Positions 39,519 to 63,164 of a DNA stretch of 64,000 nt are shown in pieces (position 1 is the stretch's first letter; each line of letters opens with the position of its first letter). This DNA comes from a virus. Position numbers and translations under genes: made by a program. The stretch lies in the IMG/VR virus record IMGVR_UViG_3300020220_000041; one strand, given 5' to 3'. The notes under the pieces were generated by a model that worked only from the letters and a program-made list of their open reading frames with translations, ran no database searches and had not been told where the DNA came from.

Positions 39519-40418
39519 TCAAGCGGCTTCGGCGTTCTGCTCCTCTTCTTCGTCTTCCGCACCCGCGTTCAGGATGAGGTCAACTGCCTGCTGTGCCGCC
39601 CGAGCGGCCCCAAACACTGCATACTTGTCCCCTCGAAGCACCTTCAACCAGTGGGCCAGGTAGTTCGGGTGTTGCAGATCACCCTCAACTCCGAGATGAG
39701 CACACAGGAAGGCCGCGCCGATTTCGGCCACCAGTTCCTCCATCGCGTAGGCATCCGAGCCGAACCTGTTCTTGAGGTCTCGGTTCAACCTGCCTTCGGC
39801 TCCAGTCCAGTGGAGCGTTTCGTGCGCCCGGGTCGCCAAGTAGTTCTCGATCGTGTGGAACTGCTCGACGTTGGGGAGGCGAATGCAGTCCTCGGCCGGG
39901 GAATAGCAGGCGTGATCACCACCGTGACGGACATCAGCCCCCACAGCTTCGAGTACCGTCATCGCTTCCGTGTGGGTGCCCGCCAGGTGGATCGAAGGGG
40001 CGACTTCCCCCACATCAGCAGGCAGACCTTCTACTTGTTCCCGGTTAAAGACAGTAAAGACGCGGAGGAGCGGGATCTTCTTGCCCGTCTCGACGCCCTC
40101 GACCTTTTCGGGGATGAACTGCCAGTAGACGATCTTCGTGCCCTTCTCGCCCTTGCGGACGTTCGCACCGAGATCCTTGGCCTGGTTGAAGGTGTACCAG
40201 CGGGCGTCGCTGTAGCCCGCGATGGCGAGCAACCAGATGTTGAGGCCGTTGTAGTGCCGACCCGACTTGCCGTTGCGGGGCATGCCGTTGATGCCCATGG
40301 ACTTCCAGGGCTTCGACCACTCCCCGGGGCCGGCTTCGAGGGCCGCGACGATGCGGTCGGTCACGTCCTGGTACCAGTCGTTCTTGGGGGCGGTGGTGGT
40401 CTTGGTGCTGCGGGCCAT
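39519..40418 (-). CDS. ardC: ArdC-like antirestriction protein
   Basis: N-terminal ssDNA-binding region (KPW...NGxxYxGxN...) plus a C-terminal zincin HExxH (ATRAHETLHWTGA). Confidence 0.7.
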   Translation of the reverse strand: MARSTKTTTAPKNDWYQDVTDRIVAALEAGPGEWSKPWKSMGINGMPRNGKSGRHYNGLNIWLLAIAGYSDARWYTFNQAKDLGANVRKGEKGTKIVYWQFIPEKVEGVETGKKIPLLRVFTVFNREQVEGLPADVGEVAPSIHLAGTHTEAMTVLEAVGADVRHGGDHACYSPAEDCIRLPNVEQFHTIENYLATRAHETLHWTGAEGRLNRDLKNRFGSDAYAMEELVAEIGAAFLCAHLGVEGDLQHPNYLAHWLKVLRGDKYAVFGAARAAQQAVDLILNAGAEDEEEEQNAEAA

Positions 40419-40435
40419 TGTGGTGTCCTCCTGAC

Positions 40436-40472
40436 ACCCGTACTACGCGGGGCACCCGACGACCTGAACCTT
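40436..40472 (-). promoter_or_regulatory. Conserved promoter-like motif: AGGTTCAGG-N14-GCGTAGTACGGG
   Basis: Full copy upstream of ardC. Confidence 0.5.
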
Positions 40473-40644
40473 ATCCGTGAAGTCCTGCATCACATTTCTC
40501 ATCTTCAGTGGCCCCGCAGATTGGGCACCGGATGTCTCTGGAGTCCACATCGGCCACATGGGCGAGGAAGGGCTCCCAGTCGTTGGTGAGCCACATCCAC
40601 CACGCCCGCCACCACGGGATGTCCACCTGTTGAATGACAGCCAT
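40471..40644 (-). CDS. Small Trp-rich Zn-ribbon protein (57 aa, not in the ORF track)
   Basis: ATG with a GGAGAGG RBS. MAVIQQVDIPWWRAWWMWLTNDWEPF...CPICG. Confidence 0.4.
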   Translation of the reverse strand: MAVIQQVDIPWWRAWWMWLTNDWEPFLAHVADVDSRDIRCPICGATEDEKCDAGLHG

Positions 40645-40718
40645 GAAGAACCTCTCCGTCCTCCCTACGCGGTAGGGAGGACTCGCTGAGCCCCGCGTAG
40701 GGTGGGTAGGAGATTCTG

Positions 40719-41525
40719 ATGAGCCACCCGCTTCAGCGTGCCAGTGAGTCCCGCGACCTCGAGGAGTTCCTCAACCTTGCGTTCCCGTCCGACTGGGGCG
40801 GCATCGCAGCCCGCATCGTCGAGACAGGGGCGGAGATGTCCGTCGAGAAGTGCGGTTGGGCACCCCGGTGGTCGAAGATTCCGCCCACCGTTCGTAAAGG
40901 GTCCGCCTCGATCGAGACGGCGGCCAAGTCCGTGATCTTCCGGGTTCACGACTGCCTGCACCAGTTGTGGGGGCTCCCCCACCCGGGCTCGTTCAGCGAG
41001 GACGACTTCTACTACTACAAGCGTGCCCAGATGTGCGGTGAGGTGGCCGTTCTCACGCTCACCGAGTTCGTCTACTGCGACTACCTGCGGCGGCAGTATC
41101 CCGAGCTTGCTCCTCTGATCTGGAGCCGCAACGCCATCCCCCTTCTGGAGGGTCCGATGGCGGGCAAGAGTACGGAGCAAGTCGCGATGAGGCTCGACGA
41201 CCTACTCCACAAGAAAAGCCGTCCGAAGTGGGTTCGAGAGAACCCCATCGCCCTCGCGTTCGTCGAGGACTACGTGCCCATGTTGGAGCGAGATCGCGAG
41301 CAGATCGACCTGAACTGGGCGGCCATGAAGGCGGCGAACTGGCTTCCCGAGGGGGCACCCAAGGCCAAGTTCGGTCCGAGTCTGGATGGGCTCGAACTCA
41401 CCGTGTGGATGATCCGCGACTTCGAGCACCTGATCTCGTCGTCGCCCGACATCGATCGTGCTTTGGCGGCCTTCAACCGGGAAAGGCGTGCCCGTCTCGT
41501 CCTTCCGCCTGGATGGGCCAGTTGA
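40719..41525 (+). CDS. Hypothetical protein
   Basis: 268-aa ORF preceded by GCGTAGGGTGGGTAGGAG. Confidence 0.5.
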   Translation: MSHPLQRASESRDLEEFLNLAFPSDWGGIAARIVETGAEMSVEKCGWAPRWSKIPPTVRKGSASIETAAKSVIFRVHDCLHQLWGLPHPGSFSEDDFYYYKRAQMCGEVAVLTLTEFVYCDYLRRQYPELAPLIWSRNAIPLLEGPMAGKSTEQVAMRLDDLLHKKSRPKWVRENPIALAFVEDYVPMLERDREQIDLNWAAMKAANWLPEGAPKAKFGPSLDGLELTVWMIRDFEHLISSSPDIDRALAAFNRERRARLVLPPGWAS

Positions 41526-41528
41526 GGG

Positions 41529-41756
41529 TCAGCCTTCGGGACGGCGTAGCGGGAAGGGGCTGACGCAGGAGAGGTGGACGGGGCGTTGGGGGACAGCCGC
41601 CCCGCTCCGCCCATCAATGGGAGTCCCTGTCTGAACCGTCTCGATGGCCCACGAGACGAGGAGGAACCAGGAGCCCTTCTCCACAGCCTTCCCACACACG
41701 GGGCACAGAAGAGGGCCCGGCTCACCAACAGACGGCACTTGTGCGTTTGTGCTCAC
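41529..41756 (-). CDS. Small Zn-ribbon protein
   Basis: 75 aa with CPVCGK. Confidence 0.4.
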   Translation of the reverse strand: MSTNAQVPSVGEPGPLLCPVCGKAVEKGSWFLLVSWAIETVQTGTPIDGRSGAAVPQRPVHLSCVSPFPLRRPEG

Positions 41757-41785
41757 GGGTTCACCTCGGTCGACATCGTCCTCTC

Positions 41786-42244
41786 CTACAGTTGACTCGC
41801 CCGGTACTCGTCCCAGCGTTCCTGCCAGTCCTCGACGTACTCATCGGAACAGCGAGGGCATAGGAGACGCGGACGATTGGGGTCTTCTCCCTGTTGGTCC
41901 CAACTGTAGGCGGTCATGGCTGCCGTGGGCCTCAGCACGAGGCCGTCGGGGCACTCTTGCCGATGACCTTCGCATCGGGGAAGGGCCAGCTTGAGTTGCC
42001 GAGCGACATCCTCGAGGGCGGTCTCGTGCTGGGAGAGCCATTGCACGAGCCGGTCGACGGACTGTGCCGCTTTGGGCGGGGTAACAGCGGCGACCGCATG
42101 GCGTTCGGGGAAGCGACAGGTGGGGCCGGCGTGGACCACGCCGCAGTAGTCGCATCTCCCCTGTGACCGGAGGTCCCTCCGGCGTTCGAGTTCGCCGAGG
42201 AGTTCCGCTTCGGTGATCTCGTCGAGGTCGCGGGGGTAGCTCAT
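41786..42244 (-). CDS. Hypothetical Cys-rich protein
   Basis: The real part begins MSYPRDLDEITEAELL and contains several CxxC pairs. Confidence 0.45.
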   Translation of the reverse strand: MSYPRDLDEITEAELLGELERRRDLRSQGRCDYCGVVHAGPTCRFPERHAVAAVTPPKAAQSVDRLVQWLSQHETALEDVARQLKLALPRCEGHRQECPDGLVLRPTAAMTAYSWDQQGEDPNRPRLLCPRCSDEYVEDWQERWDEYRASQL

Positions 42245-42543
42245 CGCCGGGTCACCGTGAGGCCCGTGAAGCCCGTGGCATCGCACCGGGACACGAAGCC
42301 CGAGGCCACCTCACACCGGACGTATTTGGACCCTCGGAGCAGCACTGCCTCACCCGTGAAGGGTGACCAACACCCCACGACTTCTCCTACGGAAAGGTCG
42401 CACGAAAACACCCGCCCATCGGAGCGTTCGACTGGGGCCGTGCCGGTGAACGACGTGGCCCGGCATGTTTGCACCTGGCCCACGGAGATGTCGCACTCGC
42501 GGTAGAGGGGTCCGGCTGCGAGCGCGAGACCCAACCAGATCAC
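42241..42543 (-). CDS. Small secreted/membrane protein
   Basis: Its GTG overlaps the upstream stop as GTGA. The N-terminus VIWLGLALAAGPLY is hydrophobic and several cysteines follow. Confidence 0.4.
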   Translation of the reverse strand: MIWLGLALAAGPLYRECDISVGQVQTCRATSFTGTAPVERSDGRVFSCDLSVGEVVGCWSPFTGEAVLLRGSKYVRCEVASGFVSRCDATGFTGLTVTRR

Positions 42544-42989
42544 TTGAACAAGTCCTCGAACTCCGCGTCCGAGAACTCCTTCGCGATGGGGACGGGAGGG
42601 GGTTCCGTCTGCGGCGAGAAGTCCTTGAAGATGTCGTCGATGGCGGGGTCGTCGATGATCTCCCGCTTGACCTTGCCCGTCAACGCTTCGGGGGTGCGGA
42701 CTTCCGACTTGGTCGAGCAGTACGTCCCAAGTTCGGGGTGGTCCTCGATCAGCCGCAGGCCGATGTACCGCCGGTAGGCGTTGGGGATGGCGAAGTCCTT
42801 CTTCTTGAACCGGATGCTCGCGTCCCAGCGCACGACTTCGGTGAGGGCGTACACCGAGAAGTGCTCGCCCCGAGCGACCTTCTCCTGTGCCAGTTCCTCG
42901 AACCGGGCATAGGCTTCGGGGTTGTCCCGAATCCAGTCTTGTGTTTCGTCGTACAGGTCGAGCCGACGACGCTCCTTCGCGACATCCAT
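42540..42989 (-). CDS. Hypothetical acidic protein
   Basis: 149-aa ORF. Confidence 0.5.
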   Translation of the reverse strand: MDVAKERRRLDLYDETQDWIRDNPEAYARFEELAQEKVARGEHFSVYALTEVVRWDASIRFKKKDFAIPNAYRRYIGLRLIEDHPELGTYCSTKSEVRTPEALTGKVKREIIDDPAIDDIFKDFSPQTEPPPVPIAKEFSDAEFEDLFK

Positions 42990-43060
42990 ACGAGTAGCCC
43001 TCTACACCCACTACCCGGATTCGGTGGTCTGCCTATCCCCTACTTCAGGAGAGGGAATCC

Positions 43061-43558: not shown

Positions 43559-43806
43559 GGAGCCCTCTGATGGCACGGACATCGGACAGGCTGACCTCGC
43601 CACCCTCTACTCGAGCAAGGACGAGGCGTTGAAGGCCGTGCTCCTCCACGCGAACGAGGCCCTGACGAAGTGGAAGCTGCCCGACGAGGAGGCGGACATT
43701 CCCGAGGAGTCTCTCTGGACCCGGTGGTTCGGCCGCAAGGCCGACTTGTCTGAGTAGACAGATCGCGCTTGTCTCGGCAGACAAGCCACATTTTCTTTCG
43801 CCCGAC

Positions 43807-43842
43807 AGGTTCAGGAACCCCCCTCTCTTGCGTAGTAGAGGT
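43807..43842 (+). promoter_or_regulatory. Conserved promoter-like motif: AGGTTCAGG-N14-GCGTAGTAGAGG
   Basis: Plus-strand copy, 15 nt before an AGGAGG RBS and the ATG at 43857. Confidence 0.5.
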
Positions 43843-43856
43843 GTAAGGAGGTTCCG

Positions 43857-44712: not shown

Positions 44713-44931
44713 TTGGCTTCCGACGATCTGATCGAGGTAGAGGGCGTCGTCACCGAGGTATTTCCGAGCGGCAAGTTCATGGTGACGCTAGACGGAGAAC
44801 GCACCGTGATCGCCCACCTGGGCGGGAAGCTCCGGCAATTTCGCATCCGGGTGGTGCTCGGGGACAAGGTGACGGTAGGGTTGTCCCCCTACGATCTGAC
44901 GCGAGGTCGGATCACGTACCGCCACAAGTGA
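44713..44931 (+). CDS. infA: Translation initiation factor IF-1
   Basis: LIEVEGVVTEVFPSGKFMVTLDGERTVIAHLGGKLRQFRIRVVLGDKVTVGLSPYDLTRGRITYRHK aligns along its full length with the bacterial IF-1 S1-like fold. TTG start with an AGGA RBS. Confidence 0.75.
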   Translation: MASDDLIEVEGVVTEVFPSGKFMVTLDGERTVIAHLGGKLRQFRIRVVLGDKVTVGLSPYDLTRGRITYRHK

Positions 44932-45181: not shown

Positions 45182-45946
45182 ATGAAGAACGACTCCCTGG
45201 GCGACCGCATGAAGCGGTACGAGTTGGCTGGACGACAGCTTCTTGTGCCTCGAACCCCGGTCATCGCGCGCATCGACGGTAGGGCCTTCCACACCTTCAC
45301 GAAGGGGTGTGCTCGTCCCTACGACGAGGATCTGCACGCCTGTATGTGGGAAGCAGCCAAGGCGGTTGCGGCCGACATCGCGGGTTGCCGGCTGGCCTAC
45401 GTCCAGTCGGACGAGATCAGCCTGCTCCTGGTGGACTACGAGTCGAACGCCTCCCAGGCGCACTTCGACTACGAGGTGCCGAAGCTGACCTCGACGGCGG
45501 CGGCCACGGCGTCCGTGACGTTCCTCGTCGAGTTCCTCAACCGGTTCCCGGACCGTCGGGACCGGCTCATGTCGAAGCGGGGGCTCCCGACGTTCGACGC
45601 GAGGTTCTACAACGTTCCTCGAGAGGATGTGGACAACTACTTCCTGTGGCGACAGCGGGACGCGGAGCGGAACTCGCTGACGATGCAGGCCCAGGCGCAC
45701 TACTCCCACAAGGAACTTCACGGGAAGTCTCGTGCGGAGAGGCACGACCTCTTGCACGCCAAGGGCATCAACTGGAACGACCTCCCCACTCCTCGGAAGC
45801 GGGGGGTGTGCGTGGTCCGCGAGACCTATCAGAAGGGGGAGGGCCTGCGCTCTCGGTGGACTGTGGATGAGGACATCCCGATCTTCTCGACCCCCGAAGG
45901 CCGTCAGTACCTCGAACGCTTCGTGAATCCCCCTGCTTCTTCGTGA
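45182..45946 (+). CDS. Thg1-like protein (tRNA-His guanylyltransferase family, 3'-5' nucleotide addition)
   Basis: VIARIDGRAFHTFTKGCARPYDEDL and AYVQSDEISLLL match the Thg1 catalytic carboxylate motifs. Confidence 0.65.
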   Translation: MKNDSLGDRMKRYELAGRQLLVPRTPVIARIDGRAFHTFTKGCARPYDEDLHACMWEAAKAVAADIAGCRLAYVQSDEISLLLVDYESNASQAHFDYEVPKLTSTAAATASVTFLVEFLNRFPDRRDRLMSKRGLPTFDARFYNVPREDVDNYFLWRQRDAERNSLTMQAQAHYSHKELHGKSRAERHDLLHAKGINWNDLPTPRKRGVCVVRETYQKGEGLRSRWTVDEDIPIFSTPEGRQYLERFVNPPASS

Positions 45947-48651: not shown

Positions 48652-49326
48652 TCAGGAGAACGCCCGGAACGTCACCGAGATCCGCCGCTTCTTGAACCGT
48701 GCAAAGTGGGGGACCTCGTGTGTCACCGCCAGGTTGGTCTCCCACGGCAGTATGACCACGTCTCCGTGCCCCACCTCCAAATCGAAGCACCCTCCAGGAG
48801 CCCGGAACGGCCGTAGCCGGAACACTCGCTCTCCTCCAAGGGACATCGTGACGATCGGGGAGCCGGGGATCAGTCCGATCGTGGAGTCCCGGTGTTTCCC
48901 GATGTAGTGCTCGAGTCCCGGGTCGTACCAGTTCAACAGGGGCGCATCCAACCTCGGATGAAGTCCCTGTGCCCACTCCACGAACGGCCCCAAGGCCGCC
49001 GGAGTCGGCAACGCCTGGTTCCGCTGTCCCGAGAACACGTAGTCGCGGTGGTACGCCTGCTGCCACCTCGGAAGGTTGGTCGGCGTGCTGTACATCATGA
49101 TCGACGGGAAGTGGTCGGGATGAAGGTCCCACAACTCGTCGAAGTCGCACCCAGCCAACTCGTCGGGGATCCGACCCACCCACACCTTGTGGCCGTTCTG
49201 CACCTGGACGGCCCGGAAGTCTTTGTTGGTCCGCGCGACAGGCCAGGGCCGTTCGCCCCCAGGTTCGGGTGGCCTCAACCCAGCAAGCTGCTCCAGAAAG
49301 TCGTCTTCCACAACACTCTCCTCCAA
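48652..49326 (-). CDS. AlkB-like 2OG-Fe(II) dioxygenase
   Basis: YDPGLEHYIGKHRDSTIGLIPGSPIVTMSLGGERVFRL ... GDVVILPWETNLAVTHEV (HxD...H and the RxS context). Confidence 0.6.
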   Translation of the reverse strand: MEESVVEDDFLEQLAGLRPPEPGGERPWPVARTNKDFRAVQVQNGHKVWVGRIPDELAGCDFDELWDLHPDHFPSIMMYSTPTNLPRWQQAYHRDYVFSGQRNQALPTPAALGPFVEWAQGLHPRLDAPLLNWYDPGLEHYIGKHRDSTIGLIPGSPIVTMSLGGERVFRLRPFRAPGGCFDLEVGHGDVVILPWETNLAVTHEVPHFARFKKRRISVTFRAFS

Positions 49327-49405: not shown

Positions 49406-50002
49406 ATGCGTGTCACTGTCGTTCGAGGCGACATCACCCAGCAGTCCGACGTGGACTGCATCGTCAACGCGGCTCACCCGAGCCTGGAAGGTGGAGGTGG
49501 GGTCGACGGGGCCATCCACCGTGCGGCCGGACAGCGGCTGCTCGAGGAGTGCATCACCTTCCCCGAAGTGCCAGGCGACAAGGTGGGTCCGAGCACCCGG
49601 TTCGTCCTGACCCGTGACGCCCCCTGGCGTACCCGCAAGATCCGGTGCGAGGTCGGGGACGCGGTGATCACGGGGGCCTATGCCCTGTCTCCCATCCAGC
49701 ACATCGTCCACACGGTCGGGCCGCTCTACGACCCGTCGCAGCCGGTGGAGATGGCGAACCTCCTGGCCACGGCCTTCGCGAACTCCTTGAAGCTCGCCCA
49801 GGAGAATGGCTGCAAGCGGGTGGCGTTGCCCGCCATCTCGTGCGGCGTGTTCCGGTTCCCCCTGGACGAAGCCGCCAAGATCGCGATGATGGTGGCCCGC
49901 CGTCCCGAGTGGACGTTCGACGAGATCCGGTTCGTTCTGTTCGAGGAGCCGGTCTACACGACGTTCTCCGAGGCTCTGAGTTCTGTGGAAGGTGCGTCGT
50001 GA
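49406..50002 (+). CDS. Macro-domain protein (ADP-ribose binding/hydrolase)
   Basis: IVNAAHPSLEGGGGVDGAIHRAAG. Confidence 0.7.
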   Translation: MRVTVVRGDITQQSDVDCIVNAAHPSLEGGGGVDGAIHRAAGQRLLEECITFPEVPGDKVGPSTRFVLTRDAPWRTRKIRCEVGDAVITGAYALSPIQHIVHTVGPLYDPSQPVEMANLLATAFANSLKLAQENGCKRVALPAISCGVFRFPLDEAAKIAMMVARRPEWTFDEIRFVLFEEPVYTTFSEALSSVEGAS

Positions 50003-50322
50003 CCTTGAACTACCGGGACCTGGAAGGCCGGACGAGGACGGCAACGTGGGCCGAGGTGTTCGAGTCCGCCAAGCGGATCCAGGACTTCTTCACGGCGGTG
50101 CGGCACAGGTTCGTCGAGCGGGACGAGCAAGAGGTGTGTGTCTTGTGGGCTGAGGAATCGGGCTGCTCCGGTGGCCCCCGGAACGATGTTCGGAAAGTGG
50201 GTGGCTCTCTCGGAAGGTCCACCTTCAGCGAACGGTCGGCAACTCCTCTGTCGATGTGCGTGTGGGACCGAGAAGCTCGTGGGCCTGAAGGCTTTGGAGA
50301 GTGGCAAGAGTGGCAAGTGTGA
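49999..50322 (+). CDS. Hypothetical protein (extent uncertain; overlaps the next HNH gene)
   Basis: GTGA overlap with the macro stop. The first ~60 aa are protein-like and the remainder may be read-through. Confidence 0.3.
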   Translation: MTLNYRDLEGRTRTATWAEVFESAKRIQDFFTAVRHRFVERDEQEVCVLWAEESGCSGGPRNDVRKVGGSLGRSTFSERSATPLSMCVWDREARGPEGFGEWQEWQV

Positions 50323-50689
50323 GGCTTGCCGTGCTCATTTTCGAGATTGCGGGGTTCACTCCACCACCTGGAGCCGAATCGTCTCGAACGCCAAACGTAG
50401 GGGACTACCTGTCACCCTCACCCCCAACGAAGTCTGGGACCTGCTGGTTCAACAGGAGTTCCGATGCAGGTTGTCGGGCTTGCCTATCCAGGAGCGCGAA
50501 AACGCCTCACTGGATCGTATCGACAACACCAAGGGCTACGTCGCCGGCAATGTGCAGTGGGTCCACAAGGACATCAACAGGATGAAGAACACGCACACGC
50601 AGGCATACTTCACGGACCTGTGTAGGGCCGTGGCAGAGGTTTCCCATGCGACAGATGTTGGACAGGTTGCTGCTCGGCGCACAGCCTGA
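50186..50689 (+). CDS. HNH endonuclease (AP2-HNH type)
   Basis: SLDRIDNTKGYVAGNVQWVHKDINRMK. Confidence 0.65.
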   Translation: MFGKWVALSEGPPSANGRQLLCRCACGTEKLVGLKALESGKSGKCEACRAHFRDCGVHSTTWSRIVSNAKRRGLPVTLTPNEVWDLLVQQEFRCRLSGLPIQERENASLDRIDNTKGYVAGNVQWVHKDINRMKNTHTQAYFTDLCRAVAEVSHATDVGQVAARRTA

Positions 50690-51941
50690 CCTGAAAGAAC
50701 TCACGAATGTCTTTGGGGATGCCGTCCCCGCCCTTCACCGGCTGGACGCGACTCCGCAGGATCCGGAATGGCATGGGGAAGGTTCGGTCGGAACGCACAC
50801 CCAGATGGTGCTCGACGAACTCTATCGGGCTTTCGATACGGATATCGGAAAGTCGATATCCCCCGTCGTCCGGCGGGAGTTGATCCTCGGGGTCTTGTTC
50901 CACGACGTGGCGAAGCCCTGGACGACCCGACGGATGGAGATCCGGGGAGTCGAGCGAGTCGTGGCTCCCCGCCATGAGTCCCAGGGGCGGTCCATCATCG
51001 CTCCGGCCCTCGTGGACGCGGGGCTGCCCTGGGAGAGTCTGTGGCACGTCATGGGCATCGTGGGGAGCCACCAGGAACCGAAGCTCCTGGTCGTCAAGGA
51101 CAAGCCTCCGGGCGAGTACAAGCGGCTCTCCCGCAAGGTGGACCCGTTCCGCGTCACGTTCATGGAGCAAGCCGACATGCGGGGGCGCATCTGCCCCGAT
51201 CTCCCGAAGCAGTTGGAGCACCTCGAGATGTTCCTTCTGGGGGCGGAGGAGTACGCTCCGACTGGGTGGCTGGAGGAGTGGCGGGCGCACTTCGCCGAAC
51301 TGACGGTAGGCCGTCCCACTGCGTTCCGGGACCGGGTGTTCGGCGAGGCTATTCGAGCCGTGGAGGAGGGCAAGATCACGACCCTCGAGGAGGGTGGGTT
51401 CCTCGTGTTCCAGGAGAACCCAACGCCTCCCGAACTCGTCGTGCTCTGCGGCCCGAGCGGCAGCGGGAAGTCCACGTTCATCCAGAAGCACCTCCCCGAC
51501 TACGAGGTGGTGTCCCTCGACAACCTCCGGGAGGAGATGTCGGGCGACCGGGCGGACCAGACGATGAACGGCCAGGTGCGGCAGGAGGCGCAGTTCCAGT
51601 TGAAGGCGGCCCTCCGGCCAGGTCGGAAGGTCGTGTGGGACGCGACGAACCTCCGCAAGGACTTCCGGTCGATGGTGTGTGCCACGGGGTTCGACTACCG
51701 GGCGCTTGTCACCCTGGTCGTCATCCACCTGAAGCCCGAGGATTATGCCGCTCGCAACCTGAAGCGAACCCAGGCGGTGCCATCCAAGGTGCTATCCTCG
51801 CAACTTGAGGGCTGGGAGTACCCAGACGTGGACGAGGCTCACCGGATGCTCGTACTCGACGGCACGGGTCATGTTCGCGGGGCGTTCGGGTTCACCGAGG
51901 GCTTGCCGTGGGGACTTCAGGCTGCCGGGGGGCGAACATGA
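50646..51941 (+). CDS. HD-domain phosphohydrolase fused to P-loop kinase (polynucleotide kinase/phosphatase-like RNA/DNA end-healing enzyme)
   Basis: HGEGSVGTHT...LGVLFHDVAKP (HD), then VVLCGPSGSGKSTF...VVWDATNL (Walker A and AAA_33-type kinase). Confidence 0.6.
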   Translation: MRQMLDRLLLGAQPDLKELTNVFGDAVPALHRLDATPQDPEWHGEGSVGTHTQMVLDELYRAFDTDIGKSISPVVRRELILGVLFHDVAKPWTTRRMEIRGVERVVAPRHESQGRSIIAPALVDAGLPWESLWHVMGIVGSHQEPKLLVVKDKPPGEYKRLSRKVDPFRVTFMEQADMRGRICPDLPKQLEHLEMFLLGAEEYAPTGWLEEWRAHFAELTVGRPTAFRDRVFGEAIRAVEEGKITTLEEGGFLVFQENPTPPELVVLCGPSGSGKSTFIQKHLPDYEVVSLDNLREEMSGDRADQTMNGQVRQEAQFQLKAALRPGRKVVWDATNLRKDFRSMVCATGFDYRALVTLVVIHLKPEDYAARNLKRTQAVPSKVLSSQLEGWEYPDVDEAHRMLVLDGTGHVRGAFGFTEGLPWGLQAAGGRT

Positions 51942-52261
51942 CTCGAATCGAAGGAGTAGGCCCCCTCCTCGACATCCTGAAGGTGTCCGACGCGGAGGTT
52001 CACAGCGCGTTCCGGGTCGGGTCGTGGGTGTACGGGTGTGCCACGGAGTCCTCGGACGAGGACTTCCTGGTGGTGCTGCATCAGGGAAAGAGGGACCTCG
52101 TGTTCCGGCCCGGCATCAACATCACTGTCCACACGGTCGAGTCGTTCGAGGCGTCGTTGGCGGGGCACTCGATGTTCGCGCTGGAGTGTCTGTTCGCCCC
52201 AAAGGAGGCTCAGATGCAGGTATCCGAGGTTCATCTGCTCCAAAGAACGGTCTGGGCCTGA
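51938..52261 (+). CDS. Minimal nucleotidyltransferase (Pol-beta-like NTase fold)
   Basis: GSWVYGCATESSDEDFLVV (GS...DxD). ATGA overlap. Confidence 0.55.
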   Translation: MTRIEGVGPLLDILKVSDAEVHSAFRVGSWVYGCATESSDEDFLVVLHQGKRDLVFRPGINITVHTVESFEASLAGHSMFALECLFAPKEAQMQVSEVHLLQRTVWA

Positions 52262-52472
52262 CGCTTAAAGTATCAGGCCGGGCCGTGTTTCCAGCCTTGC
52301 ACCAGTTTCTATATGACGGGGCTACGGTGTGGATGCCTCGTAAACGTGCCCTCGTTGAGCGTGCGGTTCTTCAAGAGCCGAACCACGTTCAGACGAGTGA
52401 CCACTGGATGCACTCGGCCATTGTCCCCAATCGGCTTCGTGGGTAGCGTCGCACCTCCAATGGAGGTGCGAC

Positions 52473-52730: not shown

Positions 52731-53291
52731 GTGTCGAAGGATGACATCTACATCAGCGTGGACATCGAGTCGGACGGTCCGATTCCAGGTCCCAATTCCA
52801 TGCTCTCTCTGGGCGCGGCAGCGTTCCGTGCCGGGAGTCGAGAGCCCCTCGCTACGTTCGAGGTGAACCTCACGCCGCTGTCGGGGGCCACCCCGGACCC
52901 CGAGACGATGGCGTGGTGGAGCAAGCAAGACCCCGAGGTATGGAAGCACGTCACCAGCAATCCGCTTGAGCCCCGGTCTGCGATGACGGCATTCGCGGAC
53001 TGGGTTCGGGGGCTCGGGGGCGACCCCGTGATGGTGGTGTACCCGACGTGGGACTCAGTCTGGATGCACTGGTACCTGGTTCGATTTTTGGGGAAGTCTC
53101 CCTTCGGACTGGGTGCGTTGGATGTCAAGACCCTGGCCTTCTCGAAGCTGGGAGGCCGAGATTTCAAAGGAACATCAAAGCGCAAGATGCCGAGTCAGTG
53201 GTTTGAGGGCTGCCCGCCCCACACCCACAAGGGGCTTGACGACGCCATCGGGCAGGGGATCTTGTTCATCAACATCTTGGAACAGAAGTAG
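52731..53291 (+). CDS. DEDDh 3'-5' exonuclease (DnaQ/RNase T-like)
   Basis: YISVDIESDGP ... HKGLDDAIGQG. Confidence 0.6.
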   Translation: MSKDDIYISVDIESDGPIPGPNSMLSLGAAAFRAGSREPLATFEVNLTPLSGATPDPETMAWWSKQDPEVWKHVTSNPLEPRSAMTAFADWVRGLGGDPVMVVYPTWDSVWMHWYLVRFLGKSPFGLGALDVKTLAFSKLGGRDFKGTSKRKMPSQWFEGCPPHTHKGLDDAIGQGILFINILEQK

Positions 53292-53323: not shown

Positions 53324-53947
53324 ATGCCTTGTCCGAAATGCGGTGCGGATCGACCTCACTTTGCCAAGGGTCTGTGCAAAAGCTGCTACAACGGCGAGCA
53401 CAAGATCGCGGTGCCGCAGTCGTTGTCAGATCCCGCCTTGGCACAAAGATTTTGGTCGAAAGTCCAACACGGTTCCACGGACGCCTGCTGGCCGTGGCTG
53501 CACTCAACCACCAAGAAAGGGTACGGGAAGTTCAACTTCAACGGGAAAGGGTGGATGGCCCACCGGCTGGCGTGGGCCATCCACCACCAACGCGAACCCC
53601 TGCCCGACGAAGCCGTGTGTCATCAGTGCGACACCCCCGCTTGCTGCAACCCGACCCACTTGTGGGTCGGGTCTCGTAAGGACAACCTTCGCGACATGGT
53701 GGCGAAAGGCAGGCACGGAGCCACCAGACCCCGCGCCCTTCTCTTGCGGCTTATGGGCTTCGTTGATTCCAGGGGTTTAACAATCCCCGAACCCCTCCGT
53801 ACCGACCTTCAAACCTACTTGAAGGACTCCGCCCGGTGGCAGAACATCAAGGCTTCTTCGGCAACCCCTGTAGGAGCGGATTCCGAGGCTCCGATTCCGA
53901 CGGAGTCGGGGGCGGAGGAGGGGGTGGGGGAAACTGCGTCCGGCTGA
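53324..53947 (+). CDS. HNH endonuclease
   Basis: CHQCDTPACCNPTHLWVGSRKDN, with an N-terminal CPKCG...CKSC. Confidence 0.65.
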   Translation: MPCPKCGADRPHFAKGLCKSCYNGEHKIAVPQSLSDPALAQRFWSKVQHGSTDACWPWLHSTTKKGYGKFNFNGKGWMAHRLAWAIHHQREPLPDEAVCHQCDTPACCNPTHLWVGSRKDNLRDMVAKGRHGATRPRALLLRLMGFVDSRGLTIPEPLRTDLQTYLKDSARWQNIKASSATPVGADSEAPIPTESGAEEGVGETASG

Positions 53948-55528: not shown

Positions 55529-56140
55529 TCATCGGCGATCCGCTTCTCGAACCACTTTCCGACACGACTCGATGAACTCTTCCACGCTTTGCGTGCCTTT
55601 CATCTTGTTGCAGATAAAACAAGCTGAAACACAGTTGTCCTCGAAGTAATCCTTGGAGCTATCTACCCGATCGAGCCCCAGAGTCTCATTTGGGCCGCCA
55701 CAGTAAAAACACGGCTTACCCACTACAAGTCTTTCCCAAACATCTTCGGGGAGGGCCGTTCGACCAGTGGTGCGGGTAGACCCCACATACGTCAAATAAC
55801 GGCCGTGTTGGGTTTTCCGGGAAAGACTCGAAGCCCGGTTCATACAAGCACGACACCACGAGTGTCGTCCATCCAATGATGAGGACAACACAGGGAAATC
55901 CGTCATTAGTTGCTCGACCGCACAACTACGGCACGTCTTCCTCCCTGTTTGAAGCCTTGTGTGCGCTGCTTCTCGCTGAGCCGTTTCAAGAAGCGCAGCT
56001 TTCGGGGGGCGGGTCTCCCGTTTGTATGCCGCAACGCAGCTTTTGCACCAGTAGTGGAGGGGCCGACCTCGCGACCCCTTGCAAAAGTCGGAGGCGGGTA
56101 GGGTCTGGCGACAACGATGGCATTCGACTTGTTCAGACAT
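55529..56140 (-). CDS. HNH endonuclease (AP2-HNH type)
   Basis: LGLDRVDSSKDYFEDNCVSACFICNKMKG. It lies on the minus strand inside the plus-strand block. Confidence 0.65.
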   Translation of the reverse strand: MSEQVECHRCRQTLPASDFCKGSRGRPLHYWCKSCVAAYKRETRPPKAALLETAQREAAHTRLQTGRKTCRSCAVEQLMTDFPVLSSSLDGRHSWCRACMNRASSLSRKTQHGRYLTYVGSTRTTGRTALPEDVWERLVVGKPCFYCGGPNETLGLDRVDSSKDYFEDNCVSACFICNKMKGTQSVEEFIESCRKVVREADRR

Positions 56141-58307: not shown

Positions 58308-58949
58308 ATGCTCGAGTGGATCCAGGGCTGGTACAATTGGCCGTTTCTCCTATCGCTTTTCGTCGGGCTCGGGCTCGCAACGCTCTCGGTGCTCGGCTTC
58401 TCCAAGGACGGCGGTGTAGACCTGGACGGAGACGGAGTCCCGGACATCGGGGCTCCAGGCAGGCATGAGCCTGGTCACCTCTCGATGGAGGGGTTCGGCT
58501 GGCTCGGCTTGGGCAAGGCTCCGCTGTCGGTGCTCCTCCAGACGCTCACCCTGACGTTCGGCCTCGTGGGCTTGTTGGTCAACGCCTTCGCCCATGATGT
58601 TGTCGGCGACTGGGACGTTCTGGCGTTCCCGCTGTCGTTCGGGGTGGCCGCCGTCGGTTCAATGGCTGCCACCCGGGGCGTCGCCTCTCTGTTCTTCCGG
58701 TTCATGCCGCCCGAGCGGGCCACGGGCGCACAGCCCGGTGAGTTCGTCGGCAAGAGCGGCAAGGCCGCATCCGGCATCACCCTTTCGTTTGGGCAAGTGC
58801 AGGTCGAGGAGGAGAACAGCAACGCTCTCCTCAACGCTTGTGTTGCCCCTGGAGCCTCCGAAATCGAACGCGGCACGGAGGTTCTGTTGGTTGGCTACGA
58901 CAAAGAACGCCGCATTTACCTCGCAATCTCCATCCCTTCGGAGACGTGA
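58308..58949 (+). CDS. NfeD-like membrane protein
   Basis: Three TM segments, then a soluble beta-rich C-terminus (GEFVGKSGKAASGITLSFGQVQVEEENSNALLNA...). It sits immediately upstream of the flotillin gene. Confidence 0.5.
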   Translation: MLEWIQGWYNWPFLLSLFVGLGLATLSVLGFSKDGGVDLDGDGVPDIGAPGRHEPGHLSMEGFGWLGLGKAPLSVLLQTLTLTFGLVGLLVNAFAHDVVGDWDVLAFPLSFGVAAVGSMAATRGVASLFFRFMPPERATGAQPGEFVGKSGKAASGITLSFGQVQVEEENSNALLNACVAPGASEIERGTEVLLVGYDKERRIYLAISIPSET

Positions 58950-58955
58950 AGCATC

Positions 58956-61031
58956 ATGGACGCAATGCCTACCACCCTGATCATGCTGGCTGTCGCAGCC
59001 GTTGCCGTGATCGTGTTCATCGTGAGCACGATGGCTGCCATCAAGGCGTTCTACAAGGTCCCCAACGCGGACGAAGCCCTCGTCAAGACGGGCGGCAAAG
59101 AGCCCGTGGTGAGCACGGGCGGTGGCCTGTGGGTCATCCCGATGTTCCACAAGGTCACGAAGGTCAGCCTCCGTGCCGTGAAGATCCCCATCAACCGCAC
59201 GGGTGATGACGCCCTCCCGACGGCGAACAAGATCCCCGCCGAGATCATCGGTGAGTTGATCGTCCGCGTGGACTCGTCGAACACCGCGCACATCATCCTC
59301 GCGGCCCAGGCGTTGGGCTCCGAGTCCGAGTCCACGGGCCACATCGAAGGCCGGATGAGCCAGATCATCCAGCAGCAGGTGGACAGCCTCGTCACCGACG
59401 CTCTCCGTACCGCCGCCTTCAAGAAGGCGTTCGAGAAGCTCAACTCCGAGAAGAAGGAGTTCGCCGACGAGGTGACCCAGCTTCTCGGTGAAGACCTCGC
59501 GAAGCTCGGCCTCGTGCTCGTGGCCGTGACCATCCCGAGCATCAAGCAGGGTGCCTTCACGAAGGACGCTGGTGACGTGTTCGCGGCCGAAGGTCAGCGC
59601 AACGTCGCCGAGACGGTCGCCAAGAACAAGCAGGAGACCAACCTCATCAACCGCGAGGCCGAGGTCAAGATCCAGGAGCAGGACGTGGCGGCCCGGAAGC
59701 GCCAGCTTGCGTTGGACCTCGAGCGGAAGCAACTCGAAGCCGACCAGACCCGCCAGGTGTCCGAGTACGAGGCCACCCAGGCGACCGAGACGAAGAAGGC
59801 CGTGTTGGCCCAGGAACAGGCACAGGCCGTGGCATCGGCCACCCAGGCCGAGCAGGTCGCCAAGGCGGAGATCGCTCGCGACCAGTCCGTGAAGGCGGCC
59901 GAGATCGCCCGTGACCAGACCTTGGCCACCCAGCAGGCCAAGGCCGCTGCGGAACAGAAGAAGGCCGAGGAGGAGGCCGCCCGGATCAAGTCCGAGGCCG
60001 AGATCGCCCGTCAGAAGGCGGTCGAGGCGGCGGCCATCGAGAAGGACCAGACCATCAAGGTCGCCGACCAGAAGCGTCAGCAAGCGGTGTCCGAGGCCGA
60101 GATCGCCCGTGAGGTCGCCGTCGCACAGCGGAAGGCCGAGGAGGCACAGGCTCGGGCGACCCAGGCGACTGCGGAAGCCGAGAAGCAGAAGGCCGAACAG
60201 GCCATCGTGACGGTCGAGGCCGAGGCGAAGGCCGACCGTGAGAAGCGCGTCGTCACCATCAAGGCCGAGGAGGAGGCCACCAAGGCCAAGGTCGCTGCCG
60301 ACCGGGACGCCTACGTCCAGACGAAGAAGGCGGAAGCCGATCGCGACGCGGCCCAGAAGCGGGCCGAGGCGGCCAAGGTCGAGGCCGAAGGAAAGGCCCA
60401 GGCGGTCACCGCCGAAGCGGATGGTCGGGCTCGGGCGTTGAAGGCGGACGCCACCGGTAAGGCCGAAGCGGCCAAGTCCGAGGCGGAGGGTCGTGCCGAG
60501 GCCCTGAAGCTCCAGGCGCAGGCCGAAGCGGAGGCCCGTACCATCAAGGCGAACGCGGAGTCCGAGGCGGCCGACAAGGAAGCCAAGGCGAAGATCGCCC
60601 TGGCGGGGGCCATCCTCGAGGAAGGCAAGGCCCGTGCGGAGGCCGAGCGCCTGCTCACCGAGGCCAAGAACGCCGTCTCGAAGGAGACGATGATCCGCGA
60701 CGTGTCGCTGAAGCTCGTCGAACAGGCTCCGGCCATCGTCCGCGAGTTCATGGCTCCGATCACGAAGGTCTCCGACGTGAAGGTGCTCCAGATCAACGGG
60801 CTCGGTGGCGGCGACGGGGATGGGTCGAACCTCCCGGCGACCATCATGGGTGCGGGGCTGGCTGCCTCCGGGGCTCTCCCGCTCGTGAAGGAGGCCATGA
60901 AGGGGCTCGTCCAGAACCCCGAGGTGCAGGAGATCACCAGCATCCTCGGGAACGTCGCCAAGGACACCCTCCGTGGTGCGGCCTCGGCGGTGCGCGAGGG
61001 TGCGGGTCACTCTCCCGACAACGGAGCTTGA
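58956..61031 (+). CDS. Flotillin-like SPFH/band-7 protein with long Ala/Glu/Lys coiled coil
   Basis: N-terminal TM, then an SPFH core (ALVKTGGKEPVVSTGGGLWVIPMFHKVTKVSLRAVKIPI), then ~400 aa of AEAK-type heptads. Confidence 0.7.
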   Translation: MDAMPTTLIMLAVAAVAVIVFIVSTMAAIKAFYKVPNADEALVKTGGKEPVVSTGGGLWVIPMFHKVTKVSLRAVKIPINRTGDDALPTANKIPAEIIGELIVRVDSSNTAHIILAAQALGSESESTGHIEGRMSQIIQQQVDSLVTDALRTAAFKKAFEKLNSEKKEFADEVTQLLGEDLAKLGLVLVAVTIPSIKQGAFTKDAGDVFAAEGQRNVAETVAKNKQETNLINREAEVKIQEQDVAARKRQLALDLERKQLEADQTRQVSEYEATQATETKKAVLAQEQAQAVASATQAEQVAKAEIARDQSVKAAEIARDQTLATQQAKAAAEQKKAEEEAARIKSEAEIARQKAVEAAAIEKDQTIKVADQKRQQAVSEAEIAREVAVAQRKAEEAQARATQATAEAEKQKAEQAIVTVEAEAKADREKRVVTIKAEEEATKAKVAADRDAYVQTKKAEADRDAAQKRAEAAKVEAEGKAQAVTAEADGRARALKADATGKAEAAKSEAEGRAEALKLQAQAEAEARTIKANAESEAADKEAKAKIALAGAILEEGKARAEAERLLTEAKNAVSKETMIRDVSLKLVEQAPAIVREFMAPITKVSDVKVLQINGLGGGDGDGSNLPATIMGAGLAASGALPLVKEAMKGLVQNPEVQEITSILGNVAKDTLRGAASAVREGAGHSPDNGA

Positions 61032-61032
61032 G

Positions 61033-61797
61033 ATGACGGTGGGGACGCCGCACGCAACCCAGGAGAGCCAGAAGGGGTGGCCCCTTCTGGCTCCGCTCAC
61101 TCCCTCCGAGGTGGCCTCGATCCTGGAGGAGCTTGCGGACGCCCTGGAGAGGCGTCCCCACCTTCAGAACGACCCTGCGTTCATGGGCTCGATGCGGCTG
61201 GCTCTGACGGCCGCATCGGCCTCCAGGGTCCACGTCGAGAGGGTGTACGAGAGTGCTCCGCCTGTTGAGGTGGTTCGCGAAGTGGTCCGCGAGGTGCCCG
61301 TCTTCGACGCCACGAGCCTGACCACGCTCAACCTCGAAGTAGAGCGGCTCAAGCTGGCTCTGACCTCCGCCCGTTCTGAGTTGGAGGAAGCCAACATGGA
61401 ACGGGTGGGCGCACAGGTTCGGCTCGAGGAGGTCGCGACCAAGCTGAAAGACGCTCGGGCCAAGATCGCCAAGGTCATCCAAGAACACACCGACCGCGTC
61501 GAGCAGCTTCAGGCGGAAGCTGTGGCCCAGTGTACGGACAGGGACACCCGGCTGGCGACGACACGAGAACAGGTGGCCAAGCTGGAGTCCAACCGCGACC
61601 AGGTGGTCAAGCTCCTTCAAGCCGCCCAGTTCTCGGGCCAAAGCGCGAAGTACCAGTTCCAGAAGACCCGCAAACCCATCCCGTGTTGTCCTATCTGTGG
61701 CGGGCTCACCACGGATGCGGGTCTGACCGCCGATAAAGATGTCGGCCATCGAAAGAACTGCTGGATTAGCGGGGCGTTGCTTGCACTGACCCGGTAG
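61033..61797 (+). CDS. Coiled-coil protein with C-terminal CCPICG motif
   Basis: 254 aa. The stop of the flotillin gene abuts its ATG. Confidence 0.5.
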   Translation: MTVGTPHATQESQKGWPLLAPLTPSEVASILEELADALERRPHLQNDPAFMGSMRLALTAASASRVHVERVYESAPPVEVVREVVREVPVFDATSLTTLNLEVERLKLALTSARSELEEANMERVGAQVRLEEVATKLKDARAKIAKVIQEHTDRVEQLQAEAVAQCTDRDTRLATTREQVAKLESNRDQVVKLLQAAQFSGQSAKYQFQKTRKPIPCCPICGGLTTDAGLTADKDVGHRKNCWISGALLALTR

Positions 61798-61832
61798 ACC
61801 TTTGATGTCCTCTGTTTGTAGAGGAGGCGCAC

Positions 61833-62090
61833 ATGGTCATCGACATGAACCACCCTCTGGCCCCGTACTGCGTTGTGCTGCGGAAAGGGAAGCCAGTCGG
61901 GTTCGTGACCCGGATCGACACCCACACCATGACCTTGTGGCGTACCGGTCCCGAGTTGACTGGTGACACCCCCGGTTCGCAGGCGGTGTACGCGGAGAAG
62001 TTCGACGAGGTTCGGTACAGCCCGGACCTTCCGACGTACCTAAGGGTGCTTCTCCCGAAGGGCTGGAAGCCGGTCACCATCATCAACTGA
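61833..62090 (+). CDS. Hypothetical protein
   Basis: GAGGAGG RBS. 85 aa. Confidence 0.5.
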   Translation: MVIDMNHPLAPYCVVLRKGKPVGFVTRIDTHTMTLWRTGPELTGDTPGSQAVYAEKFDEVRYSPDLPTYLRVLLPKGWKPVTIIN

Positions 62091-62126
62091 CCTCGTTCGG
62101 GTAAAGCGTGTCCAGGAGGGCGCGCG

Positions 62127-63164
62127 ATGTCCGAAGTCGATGTCAGTCGTGTGCGTGCGGTGGTGTACGGCCAGGCGATCGGGGACGCCCTCGGGTTGCC
62201 GGTCGAGTTCCAGTCGGCGAAGGCCATCCAAGGCCGGCTCGAGGTGTGGAACGACGAGTGGCCGAAGGTGTACCGGGACACGAACCGGTCCACCTCCAAG
62301 TGGAAAGCCGGCGAATGGAGTGACGATACCGAGCAAGCCATCTGCCTTCTCGATGCCTACCTGGAGGGGGTCGAGACGGGCCGGGCTCCCTCGGACAGCA
62401 TCGACGTGAGGCTCGTGTCGAAGCACTTCCTCAACTGGGGGACGACGAACGGGCGGGGCATGGGGAATCACACGGGGAAGGTGTTCGAGCACTTCCTGTT
62501 CCCACTCGAACCGCTCACGGCGTCGCTGGACATCTGGGAGCAGTCGGGCCGACAGGCAGCTCCCAACGGGGCGGTGATGAGGACGGCCTACATCGGCATC
62601 GTCCGACCCTGGGACCTCGACTGGACCTCCGAGGTAGCGGCCGAGTGTGCGGCCGTGACTCACGCGGATCCCCGCTGCAAGGCGTCCGCTGTGGCCGTGA
62701 GCGTCGCCATCGCGGAGATGGTGATGGGGGCTCCCGTGTCGGAGGCCATCGCCCATGCGGCGGAACGGGCATCCAAGCACGACCCCACCGTCCACGCCTG
62801 GATGCTCGACAAGGACATCGCCGAGTTCAACCTCGACGAGGGCCTCGACACCTACAAGAAAGGCAACCCTTTCCCGCCCATCGGCTTCACCTACAAGTGC
62901 CTCGGGGCCGCGTTCTGGGCTCTCCGCCAGGCGCAACTGTTGACCCCGCTTCGGATGTCTTCCCGGGAACGCTTCCGCAGGGCTCTCGAGGGGGTCATCT
63001 TGGCGGGCGGGGACACCGACACCAACGGGGCGGTCGCAGGAGCCTTGCTGGGAGCCTACCTGGGGATGGACGGGTTGCCTCCGGTGCTCGCTGAAGGGCT
63101 TCAACCACGCATCACCCTGGACACCAGGTTGATGAAGCTGCTGGCGGTCCACAAGCGTCGGTAG
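62127..63164 (+). CDS. ADP-ribosylglycohydrolase (ARH/DraG family)
   Basis: VVYGQAIGDALGLPVEF is the N-terminal signature. 345 aa. Confidence 0.7.
   Translation: MSEVDVSRVRAVVYGQAIGDALGLPVEFQSAKAIQGRLEVWNDEWPKVYRDTNRSTSKWKAGEWSDDTEQAICLLDAYLEGVETGRAPSDSIDVRLVSKHFLNWGTTNGRGMGNHTGKVFEHFLFPLEPLTASLDIWEQSGRQAAPNGAVMRTAYIGIVRPWDLDWTSEVAAECAAVTHADPRCKASAVAVSVAIAEMVMGAPVSEAIAHAAERASKHDPTVHAWMLDKDIAEFNLDEGLDTYKKGNPFPPIGFTYKCLGAAFWALRQAQLLTPLRMSSRERFRRALEGVILAGGDTDTNGAVAGALLGAYLGMDGLPPVLAEGLQPRITLDTRLMKLLAVHKRR

Follow-up and report, generated by a model that had tools for sequence, protein, structure and literature searches.

The window analysed here is a stretch of 64,000 nucleotides from the IMG/VR virus record IMGVR_UViG_3300020220_000041, part of the non-structural accessory arm of a freshwater jumbo phage that is uncultured and known from metagenomes. 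Its part from 39,519 to 63,164 codes for an ArdC-like protein, a macro domain, an ADP-ribosylglycohydrolase (ARH) and an AlkB-like dioxygenase, and a WGR-domain protein is encoded further upstream. An earlier note on this DNA had read these five as a concentrated arsenal against host systems that ADP-ribosylate. Instead, we find that the macro gene belongs to a syntenic, half-decayed RNA end-healing cassette and that the five genes are neither clustered beyond chance nor inherited together. The gene set was chosen by G+C content at codon positions and then corrected with public gene calls made on contigs of identical sequence in JGI and Logan metagenome samples (longest contig, 68.5 kb).

The five genes themselves lie where they had been placed. 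The ArdC-like gene (39519–40418, − strand) combines an ssDNA-binding ArdcN domain (6e-35) with a zincin metallopeptidase domain (MPTase-PolyVal, 1e-46) whose HETLH zinc motif (HExxH, residues 199–203) is intact. The macro gene (49406–50002, + strand), with a start at 49406 that agrees with the public gene call, matches the Pfam Macro family PF01661 at 7.6e-34 (116.6 bits against a cut-off of 22), and the ARH gene (62127–63164, +) matches PF03747 at 1.7e-63 (215.5 bits against 26.2) and displays the DDT, TH and GGDTDT motifs. The AlkB-like gene, on the opposite strand at 48652–49311 rather than 48652–49326, matches 2OG-FeII_Oxy_2 at 1.4e-16 (61.7 bits against 31.2) and has both the iron triad (HRD...H, namely H140-x-D142 and H198) and the 2-oxoglutarate site (RxSxTxR, namely R209-x-S-x-T-x-R215). 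The fifth protein, of 240 amino acids (25026–25748, +), is encoded immediately upstream of UvrD-like and SNF2 helicase genes and by itself scores below the Pfam cut-off for WGR (20.4 bits against 22, with 21 profile positions matched); its assignment is probable by way of its KRWGRL motif and its homologues, PF05406 being on record for more than half of the 97, from 61% identity downwards, on contigs of 100–530 kb.

What did not hold is the concentration. The five genes cover 38 kb of the 64-kb window, which has about 110 genes, and random placement gives a span this small or smaller with P = 0.33. Their sole adjacent pair is AlkB/macro, and at least one adjacent pair is found among five randomly placed genes with P = 0.17–0.21, so that the spacing is that of random placement. 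The pair is also missing in the closest relative, locus L016 (79–90% nucleotide identity in the DNA alignment, with the macro protein 77% identical), which does not share the segment 48641–49412 and has two small open reading frames (ORFs) there instead. The AlkB-like gene is a strain-level indel that was probably inserted recently, and its adjacency to the macro gene would be an accident of that insertion. Across 80 IMG/VR loci with an ARH relative, none has a macro, ArdC or AlkB gene within 10 kb, and across 79 macro loci the only co-occurrence of the set within 10 kb is a single ArdC gene 6.6 kb from the macro gene. The five genes are hence not an anti-defence island.

The macro gene has a conserved setting of another kind. 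In L016 it is followed, in order, by genes for a bpMoxR AAA+ protein, a VWA protein, an HD-Pnk, a small ORF, a Pol-beta nucleotidyltransferase, an RNA ligase (PF09414), a LAGLIDADG protein and an Rv2179c-like exoribonuclease. Where L016 carries the intact MoxR–VWA pair, the window has only a 5′ remnant of bpMoxR (49999–50127, +; 93% identity to the first 43 residues of the L016 MoxR), at the end of which, at 50126, the DNA alignment stops. The pair is replaced by a homing endonuclease of the HNH/endonuclease VII type (50279–50689, +; PHROG endonuclease families at 5e-23 and 1.6e-18) within a segment, 50127–50643, that is not shared with L016. Next comes a bifunctional end-healing enzyme of the HD-Pnk type (50646–51941, +; AAA_33 at 3.9e-23, bacterial Pnkp kinase at 7e-18), which is 88% identical to its L016 orthologue. 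Its C-terminal part is a 5′-OH polynucleotide kinase with the motif GPSGSGKS, and its N-terminal part has an FHD motif and a weak match to an HD phosphoesterase (18.1 against 22 bits); the protein has the HD-Pnk architecture, with the domain order described in PMC6097658. It is followed by the N-terminal half of a Pol-beta-type nucleotidyltransferase (51938–52261, +; PHROG nucleotidyltransferase at 8.6e-9, with a GS...DED motif), which aligns to residues 1–91 of the L016 protein (195 amino acids, with an NTP_transf_2 match and a sub-threshold match to RlaP). The body of the PF09414-type RNA ligase is deleted: a stretch of 2.3 kb of L016 (8075–10386) is swapped for 165 nt in the window, leaving a 3′ remnant (52384–52443, +) whose 20 amino acids are 65% identical to the C-terminal end of the L016 ligase (E 4e-5 in a search of the whole window). 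The Rv2179c-like 3′-5′ exoribonuclease (52731–53291, +; Pfam 2.6e-10) closes the series and is syntenic in L016, L015 and L012 at 58–90% identity. Thus, the cassette is eroded at three spots, with MoxR–VWA reduced to 43 codons, the nucleotidyltransferase halved and the ligase cut down to 20 codons, and the HNH gene sits at one of the junctions.

Other loci show related arrangements. In the relative L015, with a macro protein 58% identical, the order is Macro, two ORFs, Nudix, RNA ligase and exoribonuclease. Among more distant jumbo phages, on a 381-kb contig (L104, 10001–12909), Thg1 lies between a Macro and an NMN adenylyltransferase (NMNAT)-like gene; a 402-kb contig (L169/L170) links RNA ligase to Macro, and a 536-kb contig (L172) links Macro to an NMNAT-like gene. 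A tblastn search with the proteins of these relatives found no intact RNA ligase, RtcB, NMNAT or Nudix gene in the window, and NAD-salvage, Nudix and sirtuin genes were found neither in the window nor in the 4 kb beyond it. The earlier note had named a setting of the macro and ARH genes in a nucleotide-metabolism operon with NAD-salvage functions as the observation that would speak against its reading, and what is seen comes near to it: the neighbours of the macro gene are RNA-repair genes, and NMNAT-like in other jumbo phages, but the window has no NAD-salvage gene.

Together with genes elsewhere in the window, the cassette forms an RNA-repair and translation-maintenance set comprising a full-length asparaginyl-tRNA synthetase (AsnRS; 36500–37840, −; NCBIfam 1e-154, above cut-off), the initiation factor IF-1 (infA; 44713–44931, +; above cut-off), a Thg1-like tRNA 3′-5′ nucleotidyltransferase of the type that repairs tRNA 5′ ends (45182–45946, +; Pfam Thg1 3.5e-29), Macro, HD-Pnk, the nucleotidyltransferase, the RNA ligase and the 3′-5′ exoribonuclease, with the ligase deleted and the nucleotidyltransferase truncated here. 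It resembles the HD-Pnk cluster of Runella slithyformis (PMC6097658) in the HD-Pnk architecture and in the linkage, seen in the relatives, to an ATP-dependent RNA ligase and a Pol-beta nucleotidyltransferase, and it resembles the described jumbo-phage RNA-repair systems (PMC7824862, section 3.4.9) in having Thg1 and phage tRNAs alongside. It differs from both in that Tpt1 is not detected in the window, an exoribonuclease and a macro domain belong to the block, the ligase has been lost and only half of the nucleotidyltransferase is left. Jumbo phages have been described as answering host attack on tRNA with nucleotidyltransferases of the RlaP type, with Thg1 and with tRNAs of their own (PMC7824862, section 3.4.9). 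As a separate observation, Thg1 recurs beside ADP-ribose-processing genes in unrelated IMG/VR jumbo-phage contigs, next to ARH in one (L022, 10001–12199) and by the macro gene in L104.

By sequence, nearest database relatives and predicted fold, the macro protein is of the YmdB/MacroD type. Its best PDB and NCBIfam matches are YmdB, MacroD1/2 and O-acetyl-ADP-ribose deacetylase, with YmdB, MacroD1–MacroD2 and OiMacroD reached at phmmer E-values of 1e-28 to 4e-28 and 36–38% identity; its AF2 model (pLDDT 96) has YmdB, MacroD2 and OiMacroD as the top Foldseek matches (1e-16); and its relatives in the databases soon merge into bacterial O-acetyl-ADP-ribose deacetylases at 45–50% identity. The conserved features include the GGGGVDG loop, D34 and H38 (GGGGVDGxIH) and a second phosphate-binding loop, PAISCGVFRFP, the FRFP variant of which is also found in bacterial homologues. 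The catalytic Asn is replaced: His24 occupies its position, 10 residues before the conserved Asp (motif N-x6-GG[VLI]D), with the same spacing as N30/D40 of OiMacroD, whose N30A and D40A mutant entries are among the PDB and Foldseek matches. The protein further differs from YmdB, MacroD and OiMacroD in an insertion of 20–30 residues after the first helix (about residues 50–82), a part that the AF2 model predicts at high confidence. The substitution and the insertion are coupled: of the 120 best homologues, 103 have Asn at the catalytic position and 17 have His, Arg or Lys, and in 16 of these 17 a long insertion separates the GGGGVD loop from the core strand that follows. To date, this His/Arg/Lys subclade is known from metagenomic contigs alone, several of which are large and phage-like, and the gene adjoins RNA-repair genes in its closest relatives. 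With a basic residue at the distal ribose, the site could accommodate substrates that bear a phosphate.

The same comparisons bear on whether the macro protein could act against DarT. AdfM (PhiKZ gp104), a proven anti-DarT2 protein of the DarG2-like class, is likewise an orphan macro-fold protein of a jumbo phage, and its N23, the counterpart of the catalytic Asn, is needed for activity (PMC13309987, from which its sequence was taken for comparison). It differs from the window protein in class (DarG/TARG1-like as against MacroD-like) and in gene context, and BLASTP between the two found no similarity even at E = 100. DarG/TARG1 chains are absent from the best 60 of the 62 PDB matches of the macro protein (E ≤ 0.001), and the PADLOC defence models gave no match. 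On this evidence the protein appears to lie outside the DarG2/AdfM-type anti-DarT class. Among macrodomains, only those of the DarG/TARG1 type are known to remove thymine-linked ADP-ribose.

The ARH is an orphan member of the ARH/DraG superfamily. Across 33 homologues, its metal-site and TH motifs (D66-D67-T68, T178-H179 and G295-D296-x-D298) show little or no variation, with D66, D67, H179, D296 and D298 strictly invariant, so that the binuclear metal site is intact. A profile search of the PDB ranked MJ1187 (7e-44) first, followed by Tri1 (2e-31), DraG (3e-31), a Thermus enzyme, Lmo0067, ARH3 and ARH1. With DraG, Tri1 and MJ1187 it shares the Pfam family and the metal-site motifs; DraG and Tri1, its nearest characterised relatives, are named arginine-ADP-ribose hydrolases, while the function of MJ1187 is unknown. 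In contrast to DraG and Tri1, it has no adjacent cognate transferase (DraT or Tre1), and it scores far under the NCBIfam equivalog cut-offs (61 against 337 bits for DraG, 48 against 490 bits for Tri1). Homologues at 40–86% identity are found on contigs of 70–536 kb. The clade is rare, with seven IMG/VR contigs at 38% identity or more and ten weak matches among 50,697 phage records, in agreement with the report of ARG domains in roughly 5% of jumbo phages, as compared to 56% for Macro (PMC9503650, section 3.4). Single-protein scans of IMG/VR with the ARH and macro proteins returned nothing, and profile scans were needed.

In the window and in L012 the ARH gene comes after a block of exoribonuclease, dCMP deaminase, dNMP kinase and NT5C genes, and in the window (58308–61031, +) and in L013 (3035–5671 of a 244-kb contig; flotillin 67% identical) a YqiJ (NfeD-like)/flotillin (SPFH) pair lies a few kb upstream. 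The ArdC/RtcB region of phage phiCbK also holds a band-7 gene. L012 additionally has an NMN adenylyltransferase gene (above the TIGR00482 cut-off) and RtcB 8–10 kb downstream of its ARH gene and a Nudix gene upstream. The immediate neighbours differ in every relative compared, and no ADP-ribosyltransferase (ART) domain was called in the genes flanking ARH in the window or in the relatives. A conserved upstream partner was rejected, the upstream genes being different in each relative, as was a conserved partner in the 248-aa protein encoded directly downstream (63189–63935, +), which has the same length as the product of the gene after ARH in L014 and is unrelated to it. The downstream protein has an N-terminal DnaJ-type CxxCxGxG zinc finger with a weak Pfam match, and it is conceivable that it acts as a chaperone-like partner of the ARH. 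In bacteria, a cousin of the ARH at 38% identity forms a fusion with a metallophosphoesterase and is encoded behind an HSP70 gene in an operon, and Iyer et al. predicted that ARG–phosphatase–chaperone systems deconjugate ADP-ribosylated proteins (PMC9503650, section 3.8). It is because of this prediction and the setting of the cousin that we infer a protein substrate for the ARH.

The remaining three genes have separate affinities. The ArdC-like protein shares with ArdC of IncW and IncP plasmids and with the phiCbK-like version the two domains with HExxH; it is 45% identical to gp225 of phiCbK, the ‘ArdC-like antirestriction protein’ of phiCbK-like Caulobacter jumbo phages, and has matches in 57 of the 50,697 phage records. 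It stands in a phage whereas plasmid ArdC stands in a leading region, and beyond the ArdC gene itself its surroundings showed no synteny with the phiCbK locus. Cleavage of host proteins has been proposed for the ArdC-like peptidases that group 3 jumbo phages encode (PMC7824862, section 3.4.4). The closest solved relative of the AlkB-like protein is human ALKBH2 (9e-9), in an alignment that spans the catalytic core, and its scores against the NCBIfam equivalogs of bacterial AlkB (23.5 against 231 bits and 19 against 267 bits) place it outside AlkB orthology. It has no match in the 50,697 records of the cultured-phage collection; AlkB-like enzymes have been reported as sporadic in jumbo phages, where they might reset methyl marks (PMC7824862, section 3.4.7). 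In the WGR protein neither PARP nor another catalytic domain was detected, and a PDB sequence search yielded nothing meaningful. WGR proteins of jumbo phages have been interpreted as MolR-like DNA-binding transcription factors (PMC7824862, section 3.4.3).

In light of the above, we consider it probable that the interval is a mosaic of accessory genes that were gained and lost independently amid homing endonucleases, and not an operon or island with a single target, with the macro gene in a decaying RNA-repair cassette. We propose that the RNA-repair set probably keeps tRNAs and other RNAs usable after attack by host ribonucleases; the set would itself be a counter-defence device, but one aimed at these ribonucleases. 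Within it, the macro protein would most likely clear by-products or adducts that derive from ADP-ribose and sit on RNA ends (for example ADP-ribose-1″-phosphate or phosphate-linked ADP-ribose), and is unlikely to reverse base-linked ADP-ribosylation of DNA. The ARH would act as a stand-alone metal-dependent hydrolase that most likely strips ADP-ribose from protein side chains, where the writer could be a host or a phage enzyme. The ArdC-like protein is predicted to be an ssDNA-binding metalloprotease that probably protects incoming phage DNA against restriction or cuts a host protein, the AlkB-like enzyme is predicted to demethylate nucleic acid, and the WGR protein is probably a DNA-binding protein tied to the helicase block.

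Several points weigh against this picture. Tpt1/KptA, a 2H phosphoesterase and an intact RNA ligase were not found in the window or in the 4 kb beyond, and because of this the by-product that the macro protein would clear has no identified source here. With the cassette partly decayed, the retained macro and HD-Pnk proteins may now serve another purpose, and it is not certain that the macro protein is a hydrolase at all, given His24 at the catalytic Asn position. A divergent ART could hide among the many neighbouring ORFs that lack a family, and the sequence at hand amounts to about 68 kb of a genome that is probably much larger.

Against the mosaic we weighed three other explanations. That macro, ARH, ArdC, AlkB and WGR jointly oppose host ADP-ribosylating immunity of the DarT, PARP-like or Thoeris kinds, with the macro and ARH proteins erasing ADP-ribose from phage DNA, RNA or protein, draws strength from phage erasers proven to beat DarTG, namely the NADAR protein AdfN (PMC11825919) and the DarG2-like macro AdfM (PMC13309987). 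T4 30.3, which is AdfN, supplies the concept of a phage-borne orphan eraser, though with an unrelated fold, and no NADAR domain was found in the window. Like orphan antitoxins, the macro and ARH genes both stand alone, no transferase having been detected beside them; the active site of the ARH is intact; and ArdC is a recognised antirestriction family. We nonetheless regard this explanation as quite unlikely. The macro protein is of the MacroD/YmdB type with no detectable similarity to AdfM or to the PADLOC models, and its conserved neighbours are RNA-repair genes; the five genes are scattered and not co-inherited, the AlkB-like gene being an indel; the ARH gene follows a dCMP deaminase, dNMP kinase and 5′-nucleotidase block and lacks a conserved partner; and the WGR protein has neither a PARP or other catalytic domain nor an ADP-ribose-related catalytic partner. 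A coherent arsenal is therefore unsupported. The broader counter-defence frame of the earlier note fares better, as the element is a phage, ArdC-like proteins of phiCbK-like phages are annotated as antirestriction proteins and orphan phage erasers have experimental precedents; counter-defence roles gene by gene are plausible, but a common ADP-ribosylation target is not supported.

A similarly low likelihood attaches to the idea that the macro protein, the ARH or both degrade soluble NAD-derived molecules (cyclic ADP-ribose isomers of Thoeris, His-ADPR, O-acetyl-ADP-ribose or toxic ADP-ribose phosphates) and not macromolecular adducts, within the NAD/ADP-ribose housekeeping of the phage. Judging by gene context, Iyer et al. 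argued that soluble derivatives of ADP-ribose are what Macro domains of phages mostly act on (PMC9503650, abstract, sections 3.4 and 3.7); the nearest named relatives of the macro protein are O-acetyl-ADP-ribose deacetylases, and in L012, L015, L104 and L172 the macro or ARH gene has NMN adenylyltransferase or Nudix genes nearby. The window and its 4-kb extension lack such genes, the ARG/ARH domains were argued to prefer macromolecular adducts (PMC9503650, section 3.4.2), and the literature searched gives no precedent for these exact families as sponges or degraders of signals. Less likely still, and to our minds improbable, is that the ARH and possibly the macro protein form the reversing half of an ADP-ribosylation programme of the phage itself, which would have an undetected ART comparable to T4 Alt, ModA and ModB, and would limit or time the modification or protect phage proteins. 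Jumbo phages without an RNA polymerase of their own commonly carry ARTs (PMC7824862, section 3.4.4), ART–ARG pairs occur in some Aeromonas phages (PMC9503650, section 3.7.1) and many ORFs near the ARH gene have no recognisable family; yet Pfam, PHROGs and PADLOC detected no ART domain in any scanned ORF of the window, nor Tpt1 or NAD-salvage domains in its unannotated ORFs, and the varying flanks of the ARH gene among relatives speak against a fixed transferase–hydrolase pair.

An arsenal against ADP-ribosylating immunity, if true, would have revealed host defences that shape freshwater jumbo phages and supplied new eraser enzymes. The evidence points instead to a further example of a patchwork accessory arm with components catalogued before: all the kinds of genes here are known from jumbo phages (Iyer et al. 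2021, 2022), with RNA repair, Macro, ArdC-like peptidases, AlkB-like enzymes, WGR and Thg1 already described (PMC7824862, PMC9503650), and what is new, to a modest degree, is the macro subclade and the ARH clade. The window does show clearly how an RNA-repair cassette is taken apart around homing endonucleases, and it offers two leads for biochemistry, namely the macro subclade with its altered catalytic residue and the orphan ARH clade that is rare in viral collections. Going further, we tentatively raise two independent ideas, both rather unlikely: that the macro subclade has a substrate specificity new to macrodomains, for phosphate-bearing or RNA-terminus-linked ADP-ribose, possibly arising from RNA-directed ADP-ribosylating defences; and that the ARH clade constitutes a third class of phage counter-defence erasers after AdfN and AdfM.

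The assignment to a jumbo phage follows from the tRNA array, the ThyX, MazG, GIY-YIG, GlnII, dCMP deaminase, dNMP kinase and NT5C genes, the intein in the UvrD helicase, the long metagenome contigs and the absence of plasmid matches; the G+C content of the window is 58–66%. An origin in the leading region of a plasmid or an integrative and conjugative element, an idea prompted by ArdC, was rejected, as the segment 39000–63900 has no match in the plasmid collection searched and the gene content is phage-type. Among cultured phages, the only match at the DNA level is a stretch of 114 nt of Thg1 in the Burkholderia jumbo phage BcepSaruman (79% nucleotide identity, with Thg1 43% identical in amino acids), and close kinship with BcepSaruman or phiCbK was rejected, the shared gene being only Thg1 and ArdC, respectively. 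A scan for sigma-70 promoters and terminators gave sites no more numerous than in shuffles, and operons were not defined from it.

Among the other genes of the window, six tRNA genes (935–1935, −) form an array of four tRNA-Thr (TGT, GGT and CGT twice), tRNA-Lys(TTT) and tRNA-Gln(TTG). A protein with a DprA/YpsA-type SLOG domain (2096–2848, −) weakly matches ShosA of the Shosta defence system; SLOG domains have been placed in the phage NAD/ADP-ribose network by Iyer et al. The ThyX-like protein (6775–8439, −) has 554 amino acids and matches Thy1 only at residues 400–533, the first ~400 residues having no family assignment. The MazG pyrophosphohydrolase gene (11499–12038, −) is divergent from a 447-aa ORF (11999–13342, +) with a weak, sub-threshold match to the RelA/SpoT nucleotidyltransferase, and the two may be an alarmone-related pair. 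A GlnII-type glutamine synthetase (14462–15538, −) scores above its NCBIfam cut-off, and further genes code for a metallophosphoesterase, a depolymerase-like protein, dCMP deaminase, dNMP kinase and the 5′-nucleotidase NT5C. A 66-aa ORF (35782–35982, −) has a DNA_pol_A match on record, and the ArdC region of phiCbK likewise has an 81-aa ‘DNA polymerase’ ORF (gp197). Five genes of the homing-endonuclease type, one GIY-YIG and the others HNH-type, lie at 4241–4657, 38145–38585, 50279–50689, 53324–53947 and 55529–56140, and several of them sit at synteny breakpoints relative to the relatives. The UvrD-type helicase of 1510 amino acids (25774–30306), next to which an SNF2 helicase gene is also present, contains an intein of ~343 residues, from C694 to N1036 (about 27853–28881), placed exactly within helicase motif III (GDDKQ / SIYEFRAA); the penultimate residue of the intein is Ser in place of the usual His.

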